A DNA stretch of 64,000 nt from Eledone cirrhosa (Eukaryota). The DNA lies in the NCBI GenBank assembly GCA_964016885.1, contig OZ024743.1, forward strand, positions 7,750,001 to 7,814,000, read 5' to 3'. The position numbers and the translations under genes were made by a program. Shown here in pieces: positions 1,560 through 63,173 of this stretch. How positions within the stretch are numbered: the stretch's first letter is position 1; every line of letters starts with the position of its first letter. Below the pieces are notes generated by a model. The model saw only the letters and a list, made by a program, of their open reading frames with translations. It searched no databases and had not been told where the DNA came from.

Positions 1560-1691
1560 TTGATTGTTGACGCGCGTTTCGCTGCTGATCAGCTCAAGGT
1601 TCGATCTGGCTTGACTCTGGAATCAAAAGCTGATCAATAGCGAAACGCGCGTCAATAATCAAGAAACGCAATGAAAGCTTAACAAATCGTC

Positions 1692-1693
<2 letters not shown>
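1560..1693 (+). mobile_element. Hammerhead foldback module in (TA)n (GAAA-CGCGCG-UC half ribozyme plus tail)
   Basis: Inverted repeat TTGATTGTTGACGCGCGTTTCGCTGCTGATCAGCT...AGCTGATCAATAGCGAAACGCGCGTCAATAATCAA (1560-1662), then about 30 nt of tail; (TA)n on both sides. Confidence 0.7.
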
Positions 1694-13910: not shown

Positions 13911-15145
13911 CTTATATAGACATATCAAAACTCAAACAAACAATGTAGAGAGCAAACAGAGTAGATGATAGAAAATAAAATAAAAGATATCTTGGTCCTT
14001 AATAAAATCAATAACAAAACGACAAAAACTGAAAAAAAAGAAGCAAGTATTATAGAATTGTAAAATAAAATTAAAAAAAAACGAAAACAATTAGCCGAAA
14101 TCAAAGACTAAAACAAGAGAACGCCACTAAATCACAAAGAAGCACCAGTGTTACAAACGGCAAAGATTCCCTTGAAGAGACTTAGTTCGACTCCACCAAC
14201 CCAAAACGTGTTTATATAAACCCAGATAAAAAGTAAAATAGAAATCAATGCAGTCCTAGCAGCATGTGAAGTAAATGTTGTGAGGCGGGATTATGGAGAA
14301 TGATAACATTAGCAAAACAATAATCGAGGAAGGCCATAACAACAGGAAAAGTAGCACAGACGATGCAAAAGACAAACAATTGGAAGACGTCAGGATATGA
14401 TAGAACCACCATCTATGCGTTAATGTATTTAACAGGGAAATATAAGGTACTAGCAGAGATGTTTAATAAGTTAGTGACGGCGCCGGAGATAGAACTCGAT
14501 TGGTTCACTAAGGGGAAATTATCTTAATCCCTAAGACTAATGAAACAGCAAACATTAAAACAACATACCCATAAACTATCTCCTTACAGCTCACAAAACC
14601 TTAACTACAATAATATCACAGAATAAAAGAACATCTGGGAAAAATGACCTGTTTCCTAAAGAAAGGATAATGTAAAGGCTCACTTGGTTGTAAAAATCAG
14701 TAGCCATAACCGAAAGTTGTTGAAGGAGAAATAAGGGTTTGAGTGTGGCATAGACGGACTACCAGAAGGAGTTTGACAGTGTTTCGTGTTTCTCATATGT
14801 GGATGAATAAGACAGTATCAAAAATAAACAGATACTTTAAGAATAGCATGAATAAATGGCAAACAACTCTGCAGATATCTGTATCTGCAGAGTTGTTTGC
14901 CAAAAGAAGGAATTACAAAATCTCTCTATCTTCACTAGAAGAGCAAGCATTCTAAAAAGACTTCTCTCAACTCCTTTAAGTACCTTTAATCAACATTTGA
15001 AACAATACAAATTATATAGGAGGGCAATGTTCCTTGTATATACTATTTTATATATATACTATTATATATACTATTATATATGTATATACTATTTTATATA
15101 TATATATATTAATTCAAAATATTAAAAAATATAGACATTCATGTA

Positions 15146-15230
15146 ATCAAATATATTTTATTATATATATTTCGGAGGTACTGTGCTGTTTCCTCAGTAC
15201 GTCCTCATCAGATAAAATATATAAATTGAT
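15146..15230 (-). ncRNA. Type I hammerhead ribozyme H1 (inverted arm)
   Basis: Minus: AUAUUUUAU-CUGAUGA-GGAcGUACUG..CAGUACcUCC-GAAA-UAUAUA-UA-AUAAAAUAU. Confidence 0.8.
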
Positions 15231-15427
15231 GTATAACATACCTCAACTGTGCTGATGGTTCAATTCCAGTCTTGGCAGTGATTAATTATAACAAAACTCA
15301 ATATTTATATACCATATTTTATATACCAATATTTATATACCATGGTATATAAATATTGAGTTTTTGTTATAATTAATCACTGCCAAGACTGGAATTGAAC
15401 CATCAGCACAGTTGAGGTATGTTATAC

Positions 15428-15512
15428 ATCAATTTATATATTTTATCTGATGAGGACGTACTGAGGAAACAGCACAGTACCTCCGAAATATATATAATAC
15501 AATATATTTGAT
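15428..15512 (+). ncRNA. Type I hammerhead ribozyme H1
   Basis: CTGATGA at 15447; stem II GGAcGTACTG/CAGTACcTCC; GAAA at 15485; stem III TATATA; AUA site with cleavage predicted after 15496; one mismatch in stem I. Confidence 0.8.
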
Positions 15513-15661
15513 TACATGAATGTCTATATTTTTTAATATTTTGAATTAATATTAATAACTCCAGAAAGTTTTTCTGTTGAGTGCTTCTAATCTATTGTAA
15601 AACTATATTCATTGATTAATCAATGAAACTTGTTTAACTTTTGGTTATATATATATATATG

Positions 15662-26009: not shown

Positions 26010-26975
26010 CATGGTCAACTTTGCTTTTCCTCCTTCCGGAGTCGATGAAATAAAGTACCAGTCAATCACTGGGGTTGATTTTATAGACTTTTCCCTTTCC
26101 TTTAAATTGCTGGTCTTGTGCCTAAAGCAGAAATCATTATTAATAATTGTTTCTACTTTTTGGCACAAGGCCAGCAATTATCTCAGTATATTACTGGTAC
26201 TTTATTTTATCGACCCCGTAAGGATGAAAGGCAAAGTTAACCTCGGCGGGATTTGAACTCAGATCATAAAGGGCCGTAACTCTATGCTGCAAAGCATGGT
26301 GTCCGACTCTTTACCGATACTGCCAATCCACCGCCCTTTATTTGTAACAAATAATATGTGTATTCTTTGGCGTTTACATATTGTTGCTGCTATTATTGCA
26401 GATACACTTTACGTTCTGAGTTTAAATCTCGCCAAGGCCAACTTTGTCTTTTATCCTCCAGCTTCGATAAAAAATACCAGTCAAATATTGGTGTTGATTT
26501 AATCAACTTTCCTTCTCCCTTGATGGCCTTGTGCCTACGTTTGAAACCATTATAGAGCTAAGGAATGTTCTGTTTGATATTGAAAATTATGCAATAAACA
26601 AAGTAGTGTTGATATTATATACATTCATATGCATATATATAAAAGCATATACTTATAAAGACACATACAACCAAAATATTATTAATAATGATTTATTTAC
26701 AGACTGAGTTCAAATCCCGCTGAGGTTAACTTTGCCTTTCATCCTTACGGGGTCGATAAAATAAAGTACCAGTAATGCACTGGGTAATTGCTGGCCTTGT
26801 GCCAAAAAGTAGAAACAATTATTAATAATGATTTCTGCTTTAGGCACAAGACCAGAAATTTAAGGGAAAGGGAAAAGTCTATAAAATCAACCCCAGTGAT
26901 TGACTGGTACTTTATTTCATCGACTCCAGAAGGAGGAAAAGTAAAGTTGACCATGGCGGGGTTTGAACGCTGAGT
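26010..26975. mobile_element. Cluster of five S1 SINE segments forming a 250-bp inverted repeat
   Basis: 26010-26262 is the near-identical reverse complement of 26704-26955; a further plus-strand copy lies at about 26410-26552. Confidence 0.85.
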
Positions 26976-34406: not shown

Positions 34407-35280
<874 letters not shown>

Positions 35281-36072: not shown

Positions 36073-36399
36073 ACTGTGTAAGCAAAACCGACTTATTTTA
36101 GCCGGTCTTGCTTATATCCCCATAAACTGAGATTTTGGCTATACACACACATGGAGAGAAAGTGAGAGAGGGGGCGAGAGAGGGGTCAGAGGGGAAGAAA
36201 TTGAGGGCAAGAGAAAGAGAGAGAGAGAGAAAGAGAGATGTAGTCGTGGTGTGTTTGAAACATTGAAAACCTAATTTTACGTCTATTCTTCTTTACAAAA
36301 AAATTCTAAATTTTAAATCTTTTATTTTTGAGTTGCTTAAAAATGATATTAATTTACACGGGGACTAATAGGCAGATTTTATCTGACTAGTGTGATATA

Positions 36400-36590
36400 A
36401 CTGTTTCTACTGTTGGTACAAGGCCAGCAATTACCCAGTGTATTACTGGCACTTTATTTTATCGACCCCGTAAGGATGAAAGGCAAAGTTAACCTCGGCG
36501 GGATTTGAACTGAGAATGGCAAGGGCCGTAACTCCATGCGTCAGAGCATGGTGTCCGACCCTCTACCGATTCTGCCAATCCACAGCCCGG
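36400..36590 (-). mobile_element. SINE S1
   Basis: Full match to the S1 core, B box and head. Confidence 0.85.
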
Positions 36591-36789: not shown

Positions 36790-36790
<1 letters not shown>

Positions 36791-36848
36791 GGAAAGAGTT
36801 AGGACCCCGACGGCTGAGCGCCGGCCGTTTCGACAGCTAGATCCGAAT
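36790..36848 (-). mobile_element. Half hammerhead of family H2 between (TA)n tracts
   Basis: Minus: CUAGCUGUC-GAAA-CGGC..GCCG-UC-GGGGUCCU, truncated near the stem II apex. Confidence 0.7.
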
Positions 36849-37991: not shown

Positions 37992-37992
<1 letters not shown>

Positions 37993-38199
37993 GAAGGAAA
38001 TGTGGTAAGGAACCAGGTGGACCATAATGCACCAAAGTACTCAATACTTAGGGTAGTAGAGTGGGTAATAGGAACGAGTAGGACCCCGACGGCTGAGCTC
38101 AAGCCGTTCCGACGGCTAATTCTGTACTAAAATGATTTTAGTCCAGAATTAGCCGTCGAAACGGCTTGAGCTCAGCCGTCGGGGTCCTACTCATTCCTA

Positions 38200-38200
<1 letters not shown>
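37992..38200 (-). mobile_element. Hammerhead foldback module H2 (133-bp palindrome plus tail) in (TA)n
   Basis: 38068-38200 is palindromic around AAAATGATTTT and contains GAAA-CGGCU(UGAGCUC)AGCCG-UC-GGGGUCCU; tail 37992-38067 matches 55405-55485 and 61446-61510. Confidence 0.85.
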
Positions 38201-49512: not shown

Positions 49513-49563
<51 letters not shown>

Positions 49564-49594
49564 TATAAGTATTAATAAAATAGATGTTGTTTTG

Positions 49595-49664
49595 ATCAAT
49601 TACATTTTATTATACATATTTCGGATGTACAACAGTACGTCCTCATCAGACAAAATATAATGAT
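49595..49664 (-). ncRNA. Type I hammerhead ribozyme H1 (inverted arm)
   Basis: Reverse complement of 49751-49820. Confidence 0.8.
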
Positions 49665-49750
49665 ACATGACATACCCTGAGATGTTAAATGGTTAAGATT
49701 TACTACCTTGATTAAATCTTAACCATTTAACTTCTCAGGGTATGTCATGT

Positions 49751-49820
49751 ATCATTATATTTTGTCTGATGAGGACGTACTGTTGTACATCCGAAATATG
49801 TATAATAAAATGTAATTGAT
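49751..49820 (+). ncRNA. Type I hammerhead ribozyme H1
   Basis: AUCAUUAUAUUUUGU-CUGAUGA-GGAcGUAC(UGUU)GUACaUCC-GAAA-UAUGUA-UA-AUAAAAUGUAAUuGAU; stem I about 15 bp. Confidence 0.85.
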
Positions 49821-49948
49821 CAAAAGAACATCTATTTTATTAATACTTATATTTTAATATTTTAATAACTCCAGAAAATTATTTTTGCCGTTGAGTGCTT
49901 CCAATCTACTGTAAAACTCATTCTTTGACATAATCATTGAATTAACAC

Positions 49949-50012
<64 letters not shown>

Positions 50013-52278: not shown

Positions 52279-52409
52279 GTGAGGTTTTTTTTACAAAATG
52301 AAAAATAACCGAGGTGTCCTACACGAGTGAAAGTATAAAGAAAAAAAGATGAAATCGAAAATGCAACTGGAGTCTTATTTAAAAAAAATATATATATATT
52401 TATTTGGTT

Positions 52410-52446
52410 CCTTTACCGGTTTCGCAGTTCTTCTGCTTTTCAAAAG
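52410..52446 (-). ncRNA. Degenerate minimal hammerhead
   Basis: Minus: CUU-uUGAAaA-GCAG(AAGAA)CUGC-GAAA-CCGG-UA-AAG; two core substitutions. Confidence 0.45.
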
Positions 52447-52470
52447 TAGAGTTGAGATGGAGGGTCTGTG

Positions 52471-52658
52471 GTTTTAATATAGATGAGATTCTACAGGACT
52501 AGAACTGTTTCATTCTTTAGAAATCATCAGATGATTTCTAAAGAATGAAACAGTTCTAGTCCTGTAGAATCTCATCTATATTAAAACTTTTATACTCTGC
52601 TATGTATTGAGTACCTTACTTACTGTGGTTACCTCCGATTCAACCCGGAATAACGTAC

Positions 52659-52660
<2 letters not shown>
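52471..52660 (+). mobile_element. Hammerhead foldback module H4 (117-bp perfect palindrome plus tail)
   Basis: 52471-52587 is palindromic with a 1-nt centre at 52529; minus strand reads CUGAUGA-UUUC(UAAA)GAAU-GAAA-CAGUUCUAG-UC; tail 52588-52660, then (TA)n. Confidence 0.8.
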
Positions 52661-54548: not shown

Positions 54549-55280
54549 GCATTGGTTTATGAGCTGAACTGCGCATGCGGCGCCAACTACATCGGTTTCA
54601 CAAAACGATCACTACATTACAGAGTGAAGGAACACTTAAAAAAATAAAATAACACCTCCAAGACAAAAATGTGGAAGAAGCATCACCACAAAAATATTTG
54701 CGGAACAAACAGACGCGACAAAACTCGGAATAACGGAGGAGCATTTGATTAGGAAGAAAGAACCGACTCTGCACCATCGGAGTGACCTGGGCAATTGGAA
54801 ACACCTGCACACTTACTCTGACGGGTAAAGGATTTGCCAACATGAAACAACAGAGCCTGACGAACGATTTTACAACAAAAAGCGCTAATCACTAACCTTA
54901 AACTAATCCATACTAACCCAGCAACAAGGCTCGTAGACAGTAACTGCGTACCCGCTCACGGCAAACATACTAATACTAGTTATAATTCCTTCCTTTAATC
55001 TTTTTAATTATTTTTAATTATTTTTATCCTAACCTTAATTCACACACACACACACACTTCTATCACTCTCCTCAGGTACCGAACAATAAAACACAGAACG
55101 TTTACCGTTTTAACAAGTTTTATCTCTATTATTTACTCCAGCTATTTCTTCCTTCCAGCTCCCTATAGCTCACCCCTGTCACCCGATGTCTAGCCTTCCC
55201 CTCAATACTCACATCATTAGGGACTATGCGCAACTATAACTTCTATACAACTCAGCCGTCGGGGTCCTGACCCTTTTCCT
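54549..55280 (+). mobile_element. Penelope-like element remnant: GIY-YIG endonuclease end plus 3' UTR, ending in an H2 hammerhead fragment and (TA)n
   Basis: From 54549: ALVYELNCACGANYIGFTKRSLHYRVKEHLKK (VY-x-C-x-C-YIG-T-R-L-R-EH); after a frameshift, KIFAEQTDATKLGITEEHLIRKKEPTL; ends CTCAGCCGTCGGGGTCCTGACCC. Not shown in the ORF track. Confidence 0.8.
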
Positions 55281-55290
55281 ATATATATAT

Positions 55291-55485
55291 AAAGGGTCAG
55301 GACCCGACGGCTGAGACCGGCCGTTTCGAGAGCTAGATCAGAACGCTCAGAACTAGCTGTCGAAACGGCCGGAACTTCAGCCGTCAATGTCCTGACTCTT
55401 TTCCTATAACCTACTCTACTACCTTAAATATCGAGTACTCTGGTGCCTTATGGTCCACCTGGTATCTTACGACACACTCTTTGTT
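55291..55485 (+). mobile_element. Hammerhead foldback module H2 plus tail
   Basis: Inverted repeat 55291-55401 centred on the stem II loop; GAAA-CGGC..GCCG-UC; tail homologous to 37992-38067. Confidence 0.8.
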
Positions 55486-55498
55486 ATATATATATATA

Positions 55499-58960: not shown

Positions 58961-60686
58961 ATCGTAATAGAAGACCAACTGTAAAGAGATAAATCTCAAT
59001 GAGACCACTACGGCCAAGAAAAGTATGTATATAATCATCAACAATGGTAATACGAGAGAAATCGAATTACATTGAGACTTCACCATATTTAGATCATGAT
59101 ATATATTGCTAAGTTGTCCCATTTGACATCGTAAATCATATGAATTATAAGCATGTTTGGCGACATCTCTCTCAAATCTCCATAAAATGTAGCAAGAAGC
59201 GACTTATATTTTGCACATTTTAGATAACATATCACCCACAAATCAGTAATAAGTAGAGAATATTTCAAATATACCTACTATTTGGCACATTTGATATGGC
59301 AGGGACGAAAAACTATTGCTTGAATATAATCTATCCTTAAAACAACCGAGTAGTGTGTGCGTGCGTTCTTTTAGACCTAGCAAGACGAAATACGAAATAT
59401 ACAACCACATATTGAGGTCCACGGATAGAACGCTTTTTAGCATAAGTCTGCTCAGTCAAGACTGACCCGAGGATATACAACAACAAAAAACAAAAATGCT
59501 CTTCCTGCTTACAGCAGTGAAATCCTTTGATCTGGGGACCAGCATTCTAACTACATAGGCATCTGACATTCTTCATTTGTGTATAAATTCCATTTGTTTG
59601 ATTTCTTTTGACAAGTGAATAACTTCAGTATGTAATACGTTTAGACAGTCAGATACTTTTCCTCTTCTTTCTCTTTCTCCAATACACTCATATATTTATT
59701 TTGCCTTTAGCTGTTATGTAAATTCAATTTAAGGTTATATATGCTTAGCTAATTACTTAATTTCAAAATTTACGGATTACAACATCAAAATAATGCATTT
59801 AGAAAACATGATATTTTGAAAGAAGACAAGGAATACATTGACTAAAACGTTTGCATTTCTCCACACAAATTAATTCATATAGATTTCATGTTATTTGATT
59901 TGGTATAGAAATATTAGTGTCAATTTTCTTCGCCCTTTATTAAAAGAAAATGCAATGAGAAATGTTATTCTTAATTAACTAAAATATCCAGTAGCTTGAT
60001 TATTCTATATATCTAGATTGTGAAATAGCTTTAAGTTTCGCAATATATATCTTTCATCGTCATGTGTAAAAGTAGTAAAACAGTAAATTTTCCCTAAGCT
60101 AATATGAAACTAAAAAGTAAAAAGGCGGTAACCGGTATCACTAGCTATGTAAGAAAAGCCCTTATTATGCTAAAGTCTATTTCAGACGTAACATTTAGTT
60201 TAAACTAGACTTCCAAACAAACATATTACAATCTCTAATATTATCTATAGATGATATGAGAAAGGATTTGTGGAATCAATCATTATTAGATAAGACTTAT
60301 AACATAACTGTGACATATTATTGACATAATATTCTAATTGCAAGAGGTAAGAACAATACAATATATTCAGCTCCCTACTAAACATAAACACACCCATTCC
60401 TACATATATACATACATACACACTCACACAAACACACATATATATTATAAAGAATCAGGACCCGACGACTCAGCTCTTGCTGTTTCAACAGCTAGTTCCA
60501 GACTCGCATATATATATATACATACGAGGGCAATCCCAAAAGTAAGGTCTCTAAAGCGATGGGGACGCAGAGAAAGTGTTCGTACGGCTGTTGGCAACAC
60601 TGTTGTGATTGGTGCTTCATTCACTCCTAAACAAGCATGCGCGCGCTTCGCTGGGATACTCAATCTTGGCTTGGCAGCCGTTGAGA

Positions 60687-61030
60687 ATGGAGCTCCCGTT
60701 GAACGCTACCGAAGTGCGAAGTTCGCGCAGTTATTCAGTTTTTGAACGCAAAAGGCGTTGAACCGATTGAAATTCATCGCCAATTGACGGAAGTGTATGG
60801 ACAGTCGTGCATGGATGTCAAAAACGTTCGCAAGTGGTGTAGAGAGTTTACAGCCGGTCGTACTGAAATTCACGACGAACAAAGAAGCGGGAGACCGTCA
60901 ATTTCCGACGAGACAGTCGCAAAGGTTGAGGAAAACATGCGTAAAGATCGGCGGATCACTCTGGATGCTCTCTGCATTTTGCTTCCTGAGGTTTCCCGAA
61001 GCACCATCCACAGGATTTTAACGGAAAAAT
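60687..61030 (+). pseudogene. Truncated mariner transposase N-terminus (HTH), with a 2-bp deletion near the start
   Basis: FLNAKGVEPIEIHRQLTEVYGQSCMDVKNVRKWCREF..GRTEIHDEQRSGRPS...RKDRRITL...SRSTIHRILTEKL; no DD34D domain. Confidence 0.85.
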
Positions 61031-61267
61031 TGCGACTGTCTCGTCAGAAATTGACGGTCTCTCGCTCCTTTGTTCGTCGTGAATTTCAGTACGACCGGCT
61101 GTAAACTCTCTACACCATTTGCGAACGTTTTTGACATCCATGCACGACTGTCCATACACTTCCGTCAATTGGCGAGGAATTTCAATCGGTTCAACGCCTT
61201 TTGCGTTCAAAAACCGAATAACTGCGCGAACTTCGCACTTGGCGGTAGCGTTCAACGGGAGCTCCAT
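61030..61267 (-). pseudogene. Truncated mariner transposase N-terminus, inverted arm
   Basis: MELPLNATAKCEVRAVIRFLNAKGVEPIEIPRQLTEVYGQSCMDVKNVRKWCREF...DETVA. Confidence 0.85.
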
Positions 61268-61445
61268 TCTCAACGGCTGCCAAGCCAAGATTGAGTATCC
61301 CAGGGAAGCGCGCGCATGCTTGTTTGGGAGTGAAGGAAGGACCAACCACAACAGTGTTGCCAACAGCCGTACGAACACTTTCTCTGCGTCCCCATCGCTT
61401 TGGAGACCTTACTTTTGGGATTGCCCTCGTATATATATATATATA

Positions 61446-61565
61446 ATGAAGGAAGTGTGGTAAGGAACCAGATGGACCATAACGCTCCAGAGAATTCAAT
61501 ACTTAGGGTAGTCCAGAAATAGCTGTCGAAACGGCTTGAGCTCTGCCGTCGGGGTCTTGAACATT
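61446..61565. mobile_element. H2 module with one arm deleted; a decayed H2 half also lies at 60453-60505
   Basis: Tail GAAGGAA.TGTGGTAAGGAACCAG.TGGACCATAA joined directly to TAGCTGTC-GAAA-CGGCTTGAGCTCTGCCG-TC-GGGGTC. Confidence 0.7.
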
Positions 61566-62700
61566 TTAATATATATATATATATATGTGTGTGTGTGTAT
61601 GTGTGTATATATACATGTACATTTATTAGTAAACTCTGTTAAAGAAGACTGGGTTAACAAATAAAATGTTTCAAGACAAATTAACCACTCATACAAATGC
61701 ACTTCTACTATCTTAATCATATGCTACCGATTCAGTATTTATTTATGTTATAGTTTAATGGATAATCTTTTGCATTTTTTTCTTCAAGAGAAAACTAATT
61801 AGATACATAAAATCTGTTTCAAACCATTGTAGTATTAGAAATTACTTTCTGTCTGATATGGTTTTTAGATAAGAAGGAACTGACAAAAGTAGTAAAACAA
61901 TCCAAAAGACGTACGAAGTGCTATAATGAAGTGTTACTAATAGTTAGTAAAGTTAGTCAGCGGTGAATGAAAACTGTGCTTAATAATAGTCAGTGGATGT
62001 AGAAGATCAACTGACTGTCAACAATAATCTAGCGAGGATTTCAGAGAAAATACAATTTATTAAATTTATTCATTTTATACTATTGAGAGAATTAGTTAAA
62101 TTTAGTATGAGAAGATAATAGCTTAATGTACCGATTGACACTAGCAAAGTACTAATATTTTGTACTATTTAATACATTATAGTTCATTGTGGCATTTTGA
62201 CCAAATCATTGGGTTTCCCAATATTGGGTTTTATAGTTATGGAATGATAAAATGTGGAAAATATGCCGCCCATACCCCCAGATATCTTTGATAGGGAAAC
62301 GGCTTTAAATCTATTTACAACTGAAATTGAGTCACGTACTCTATTGAATATGTTATTTATTATAGCGTTTTCTTTTTATATAACCACGATTAAAGAGAAG
62401 TAGAATTGAAAATTGTTGACGTTCAGGCCTCTCATTCATTATTTTTTAATTTACGATCTGAGTTCAAATCCCGCCGAGGTTGACTTTGCCTTTCATCCTT
62501 ACGGGGTCGATAAAATAAAGTACCAGTAATGCACTGAGTAATTGCTGGCTTGTGCCAAAAGTAGAAATAATTATTTTTTAATTTACATATATGTAAAGAC
62601 AATATATATGTCTAATATATATATGTACGTAAAACGGAGTTACTAGATAGATGTATATAAAGTAACTATACTCATATTTCACATACTCTAGCTAAAGAGC

Positions 62701-63173
<473 letters not shown>

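Follow-up and report, generated by a model that had tools for sequence, protein, structure and literature searches.

The palindromes studied here are head-to-head insertions of the ends of Penelope-like elements (PLE) in (TA)n repeats. The centre of such a palindrome probably corresponds to the point where the sense RNA has its capped 5' end, as suggested by the position of the arm ends relative to a TATA-like box and by an extra G at these ends. That cDNA synthesis ran off at this capped end is, on the same sequence evidence, a reading in which we place high confidence.

Hammerhead palindromes in the window

The window, i.e. the whole stretch of DNA analysed (64 kb), belongs to a 3.0 Gb animal assembly rich in (TA)n. 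A hairpin scan located all five palindromes named in a first-pass annotation: 1560-1662 (spacer 33 nt), 38068-38200 (1 nt), 52471-52587 (1 nt), 55291-55401 (4 nt) and 63001-63076 (2 nt). The PLE-family origin and the hammerhead halves proposed for these palindromes and for solo halves at 36790 and 60453 are real: all arms of the five contain the hammerhead 3' half, which reads outward as stem II 3' strand, GAAAC, stem III and GUC. The division into four families was likewise recovered: A (38068, 55291, 36790 and 60453, to which 61448 is added), B (1560), C (63001) and D (52471). Two further hammerhead palindromes, 15110-15548 and 49555-49860, form family E, with a full hammerhead per arm and a pivot well upstream of the intact ribozyme; the scan also recovered the second of them and the centre of the first. 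The window's C and D copies are atypical for their families. Coordinates of arms and pairs are given in Table 1.

Table 1. Arms and pairs of PLE ends in the window
Feature	Position	Strand	Details
Family A tail-bearing arm	37992..38128	-	putative +1 = A 38128; hammerhead 3' half, 81-nt tail, terminal (TA)n; 94% to full-length element
Palindrome centre	38129..38139		11-nt A/T-rich palindromic linker, unlike parent stem II loop
Family A arm without tail	38140..38200	+	putative +1 = A 38140; GAAA at 38158; end = internal TA site, then (TA)n
Family A solo arm	36791..36847	-	flanked by (TA)n runs; start 2 nt short of putative +1
Family A solo arm	60453..60505	-	start = putative +1 (60504); extra G at 60505
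Family A head-to-head pair, older	55291..55487		arm identity 78%; tail on + arm; starts 2-3 nt short of +1
Family A inverted tail fused to + arm	61448..61570		+ arm begins at putative +1
Family B pair	1560..1692		AGCT microhomology join in long stem II; tail-bearing + arm is the shorter at centre
Family D pair	52471..52660		ends 6-8 nt short of putative +1, within CUGAUGA; tail on + arm
Family C pair	62920..63076 (left end approximate)		pivot in long loop II; rare short case amid dispersed pivots
Family E pair	49555..49950		both arms with complete hammerhead; + arm start = putative +1 (49702)
Family E pair	15110..15645		both arms with complete hammerhead and running past TATA box (15348); wall exception

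Several other repeats were noted. Self-BLAST revealed a mariner-type foldback in (TA)n (60523-61431) with inverted arms of ~415 nt and no ribozyme; it contains a broken transposase start (Pfam HTH_48/HTH_32), and a family A arm abuts it on each side. A decayed GIY-YIG-like frame (54560-55280), with no nucleotide match among the loci compared, is followed by a 30-nt family A piece; a TA run separates this piece from the 55291 pair, to which it is oriented tail-to-tail. On the minus strand, 52400-52470 is another repeat, with a GAAAC-CG-GUA motif, which adjoins the family D pair and is also present at locus L133. Different PLE families are repeatedly stacked in one (TA)n tract (loci L015, L035, L068, L098 and L257), each new arrival using the TA run that its predecessor left behind. 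An abundant SINE-like repeat occurs at 36397-36588, at 26010-26968 (as an inverted pair, 26010-26262 / 26704-26955) and at ~20 other places in the window. Finally, a small palindrome with 21-bp arms (14857-14902) is without hammerhead motif.

Parent elements and ribozyme cores

The 26-nt tail motif of family A has 29,978 exact matches in the assembly. Full-length copies consist of 3542-bp tandem units with an open frame of 784 codons, in which a reverse transcriptase (RT) is followed by GIY-YIG (YRDD is present, and YIG occurs close to the C terminus). A Pfam search of this frame gave no match; in the atlas clusters closest to it, a minority of members have RVT_1/GIY-YIG. With a single ORF combining RT and C-terminal GIY-YIG, family A is an EN+ Penelope-like element, and its tandem or partial-tandem units have the corresponding pLTR, an inverted 5' copy and a tail on one side only. 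The endonuclease is preceded by a Cys-rich linker, an inexact match to the CX2-5CxxC of the Neptune/Nematis clade. Near-identical tandem arrays of full-length family A, of up to four units seen, were observed on several contigs (L253-L256); as their frames are open, recent activity is suggested. Family C has RT frames related to those of family A and family E an RT-like frame upstream at one locus, while families B and D, for which no ORF was recovered, are assigned to PLE by architecture alone.

Unless indicated otherwise, r coordinates below are counted from the G in the hammerhead GAAA. The family A pLTR contains a hammerhead motif whose minimum-energy structure is a three-stem fold, with a U3-A8 core at r-61..-55 and the stem II apex loop at r-26..-23. 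Among 41 long copies the core reads TTGANAA (the U3-A8 variant) in 27 and CTGAGAA in 9; in the latter subfamily the 3-8 core pair is broken and the ribozyme may be inactive. Parents of families B and C combine a U4-to-C core with long stem II regions, and folding recovered the three stems for C and not for B. The core is CUGAUGA in families D and E, the family D hammerhead being without the G10.1-C11.1 pair. A canonical CUGANGA core joined to the family A stem II was searched for and gave 0 matches; the family A core is a variant. The expectation that CUGANGA precedes the hairpin is thus borne out in part: long parents do carry a core upstream, mostly in variant form, and only D among families A-D has CUGAUGA. 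The 5' core half is missing from short family A arms.

CTGANGA occurs 34 times in the window against 23 in shuffles, only mildly above. No hammerhead is present among the 150 Rfam matches listed of 197 for the window; those listed are microsatellite-driven microRNA matches below gathering score and were rejected.

Position of arm ends

Family A arm ends were collected by BLAST, with a possible overshoot of a few nt, from the first tail matches listed on contig 1 (L031-L120), chosen regardless of centre; this gives 94 matches, the duplicate L043 being dropped and the L042 pair counted from both sides. An inverted arm accompanies 73 of these 94 matches. Its outer start lies at r+42, a TA within the element, in 51 of the 73 cases, and solo copies end at this site too; the outer end of tail arms is r+123. 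Inner ends fall within r-25..-10 for 55/73 inverted arms and 57/94 tail arms. Family A pivots therefore adjoin the stem II apex and are far from uniform. Uniformly spread pivots and intact elements lacking a core before the hairpin had been named in the first-pass annotation as grounds for abandoning its reading; neither was found for family A, if variant cores are allowed. A wider set of 234 arms, 30 score-biased loci included, has its main peak of ends at -17/-18 and a second one at -21; at the latter, another T follows in 27 of 28 cases, consistent with A-tailing of the cDNA. Pile-up at the cleavage site is weak (4 of the 94 tail matches listed, at +23/+24).

Family D was retrieved by a sequence pattern (31,535 matches). 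Of 70 arms, 53 end at or before r-26, none between -27 and -83, and 17 run on, a count in which arms of subfamilies without reference would be mis-scored as truncated. Among 46 core-bearing arms of family E, 37 reach no further than 70 nt upstream of CUGA, and 18 of these end at -61..-70; at 30 tail-anchored loci the core is kept in 15 tail arms, and 4 arms begin at GAAA or within stem II, which does not exceed the ~6 estimated for evenly spread ends. Family C behaves differently: 30 of 39 arms extend beyond -127, 4 end at -10..-19 (2 of them the window's own), and the pivots of 22 head-to-head pairs are spread over 87-6224 nt, with no sharp inner limit, or wall. Hidden tail-only short copies were looked for in this family, and 437 tail matches versus 333 hammerhead matches indicate no large excess. 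Ends are mixed in family B (13 matches), several being near -90, upstream of the core. For the most part the samples come from one chromosome and comprise young, exact-match copies.

A sixth hammerhead family with canonical core is represented in the window by 310-551 and 34613-34833 (- strand). It is mostly intact in the 20 copies seen, and these show no usable wall. A ATGCAAAT motif, which we take to be the octamer, is located ~100 nt upstream in most copies; the family is possibly a retrozyme or a SINE-like element.

TATA-like box, wall and extra G

In families A, D and E, the three abundant ones (one parent copy each), the wall is found 29, 30 and 31 nt downstream of a TATA-like box, respectively, and sits on an initiator-like A. 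Relative to the ribozyme its position differs: inside stem II, 5 nt 3' of the predicted apex loop and 18 nt before GAAA in A, 6 nt before CUGAUGA and 25 nt before GAAA in D, and ~64 nt before CUGAUGA in E. As the spacing to the box is nearly constant while the position in the ribozyme is not, the wall follows TATA+30 and not the ribozyme. The family A box is a weak TATA in several subfamilies, and families B and C have no clear TATA+30 wall. A break at stem II common to all four families, as had been proposed, is accordingly seen in the clustering of family A; it does not extend to D, whose wall, like that of E, is upstream of the whole ribozyme, nor to C, which has no wall.

The base preceding the wall was counted by eye in the first 100 matches listed per family, after removal of long copies. 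Truncated arms of family D have G in 75 of 93 of these matches (A 8, T 10), the parental base, C, being excluded by the pattern. In family A, where the parental base is T or C, G is present in 59 of 92 (C 24, A 9), T being excluded by the pattern; for ~22 of these 59 G the partner arm may have served as template, and some other truncation points, too, are often preceded by G. The extra G is found in solo copies as well, in the order (TA)n, G, element (e.g. 60453-60505). Reverse transcriptases add C opposite the cap, and an extra G at the wall is what would be expected if the cap had been copied.

Joining of the two arms

Junctions were analyzed in 49 family A pairs having both GAAA motifs. The stem II loop had been taken as the palindrome centre, or the core in the case of 52471-52587. 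In the window, families A, B and C do pivot in stem II or next to it, and family D pivots in the core; the natural loop itself is kept in 0 of the 49 centres, and the 38129-38139 linker differs from the parent. The arm without tail is the longer at the centre in 18 pairs and the tail arm in 22, the two being equal in 9; a loop of at most 2 nt is left in 21. In 5 pairs of family D and 2 of family A among the matches listed, and at locus L066, the two arms each extend to +1 and are separated by C-[A/T]-G, a spacing too tight for a fold-back. Loops of 4-6 nt and 1-nt overlaps are recurrent. Arms of one pair almost always belong to one subfamily: 32 of 45 pairs are identical at 9 sites, with 0.56 differences within pairs compared to 3.04 after shuffling, and one locus (L075) has arms from two subfamilies. 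This sharing needs one RNA or one source, and equally fits snap-back. Tight centres, longer tail-less arms and the absent natural loop favour two cDNAs; later deletion could also produce arm asymmetry and tight centres, blurring these signs.

A pair could also arise from a single cDNA that, having run off at the capped 5' end, loops back there and serves as its own template; attachment of the second strand at the internal TA site would follow. The shared subfamily of the arms and the recurrent short loops and overlaps agree with this, and the passages of PMC3846280 compared propose self-priming, in that case with antisense RNA as template, as the origin of head-to-head PLE palindromes. It accounts poorly for the 18/49 pairs in which the tail-less arm is longer, for loops of 0-2 nt in 21/49, for an extra G belonging to each arm and for an outer end at which solo copies end too. 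We consider it rather unlikely, snap-back at the RNA 5' end being possible for some copies. In favour of the explanation first put forward, in which RT stalls at the hammerhead and the cDNA snaps back through stem II to prime the second strand, are the closeness of the family A wall to the apex loop, the window's B and C copies, joined inside stem II via short microhomology, and the 4/30 tail-anchored E arms beginning in stem II or at GAAA. It is nevertheless very unlikely, on several grounds: the natural loop, which a fold through stem II would have to preserve, is found with its 5' strand in none of the 49 centres, the wall tracks TATA+30 in A, D and E and precedes the entire ribozyme in two of them, the 22 family C pairs pivot anywhere over 87-6224 nt, the E arms do not exceed an even spread, and the extra G is left unexplained.

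Very unlikely too, in our view, is that the wall represents an RNA processing site (a 3' splice acceptor or another cut), or that the short palindromes derive from longer ones through subsequent deletion. The family A wall lies in a pyrimidine-rich stretch ending in AG, the D. virilis Penelope intron ends at its hammerhead according to the part of PMC4209133 compared, and 61448-61570 resembles a centre-deleted copy. Yet no constant upstream exon is seen at the junctions, and deletion would neither halt at TATA+30 in three families nor add a G. Assignment to MITE (uniform copies, TIRs, DNA transposase) was rejected, the centres varying across the 49 copies and the ends being asymmetric. The description of the palindromes as MITE-like and devoid of catalysis is right as to the loss of the 5' core half in clustered family A copies; since junctions vary between copies, these appear to be separate insertion products and not a MITE family amplifying as a unit.

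Twin priming on the capped sense RNA is the best reading of the sequences, one that we hold to be probable and favour over fold-back at the 5' end. A promoter in the pLTR would start the RNA at the wall, and the element's protein would cut both strands of a (TA)n repeat. Priming would then take place at two internal sites, which for family A would be 60 and 141 nt from the RNA start. Both cDNAs would run off the RNA 5' end, often gaining C opposite the cap or an A run, and, with some trimming, the end of one would template-switch to the other or be linked to it by end joining. Either full-length mRNA or read-out transcription of copies bearing a pLTR may supply the template. As the putative family A start is inside the hammerhead stem II, the pivot would merely coincide with the ribozyme. 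The direct observations behind twin priming are the architecture, the outer ends fixed at two TA sites, the clustering of inner ends, the box/initiator spacing, the extra G and the A/T runs at the wall; against it count the many arms that end 1-14 nt short of +1, and 15110-15548, both arms of which pass the TATA box.

Comparison with known systems

In L1 twin priming, two primers are provided by the cut target and each cDNA copies a different part of the RNA; full-length L1 5' junctions have a cap-derived extra G. Two primers and an extra G at a complete 5' end are common to L1 and to the reading proposed here, in which, unlike in L1, both cDNAs would cover the same 5' stretch. The palindromes resemble MITEs in being short, palindromic, abundant and located in TA; they differ from them by their retroelement origin, asymmetric tail and varied centres, and gave no evidence of unit mobility.

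The architecture is already known in PLE. In the passages compared, an inverted 5'-truncated copy with one-sided tail is described for EN+ PLEs (PMC8557442), a transcription start site is placed in the pLTR (PMC2377424), and palindromic junctions are read as self-priming on antisense RNA (PMC3846280). With the EN+ PLEs of PMC8557442 and PMC3846280, as far as these passages go, our elements share the head-to-head inverted copy, the tail at one end, the pLTR hammerhead, the (TA)n target, partial tandems, and a TATA and Inr-like motif noted in a pLTR. They differ by a longer tail (~80 nt vs 30-40), by arms of 60-140 nt that number in the tens of thousands, stop sharply at an inner wall and show an extra G, and by a template that appears to be capped sense RNA, where the PMC3846280 passages favour antisense self-priming. 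In the passages compared of PMC11167929, the anole PLE (Anolis Poseidon) cleaves and extends both strands in vitro and initiates RT at two internal sites which define the tail, hammerhead cleavage is unneeded, RNA 5' truncation shortens the product, and inverted junctions or run-off at the transcription start are not treated. PLE minimal hammerheads, in the passages of PMC4209133 compared, share the U3-A8 core variant, the palindromic loop 3 and opposite-strand pairs 100-700 bp apart; the stem II regions of families A, B and C are much longer (~55-85 nt), with a putative promoter inside that of A. The parts compared of a 2026 retrozyme preprint (10.64898/2026.07.22.740005) and of PMC6962438 held nothing further for comparison. 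A start-site wall or an extra G at PLE inversion points was not found in the literature searched, and supplements, subscription papers and Repbase reports, which were outside its scope, may describe it.

Significance

The origin of PLE inverted termini, on a sense or an antisense template, is stated as open in the passages of PMC3846280 and PMC8557442 compared. The wall and extra G suggest an answer open to direct testing, for which a huge natural sample exists, and from them start sites can be predicted with single-nucleotide precision. They also account for a very abundant class of repeats (~30,000 exact matches each for two families) which could be mis-annotated as MITEs or microRNA hairpins. 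More broadly, the genome may be a fossil map of 5' ends: tens of thousands of insertions would record the capped start on both arms, the inverted pLTR would result from twin priming on sense RNA, and the family A promoter would lie inside stem II, leaving half a ribozyme at the start of the transcript and restricting self-cleavage to the read-through copy downstream. We give this complete picture, drawn from sequence patterns, about an even chance. If true, placing the promoter within a ribozyme stem would offer a simple means of silencing the ribozyme at the 5' end while the one at the 3' end stays active.
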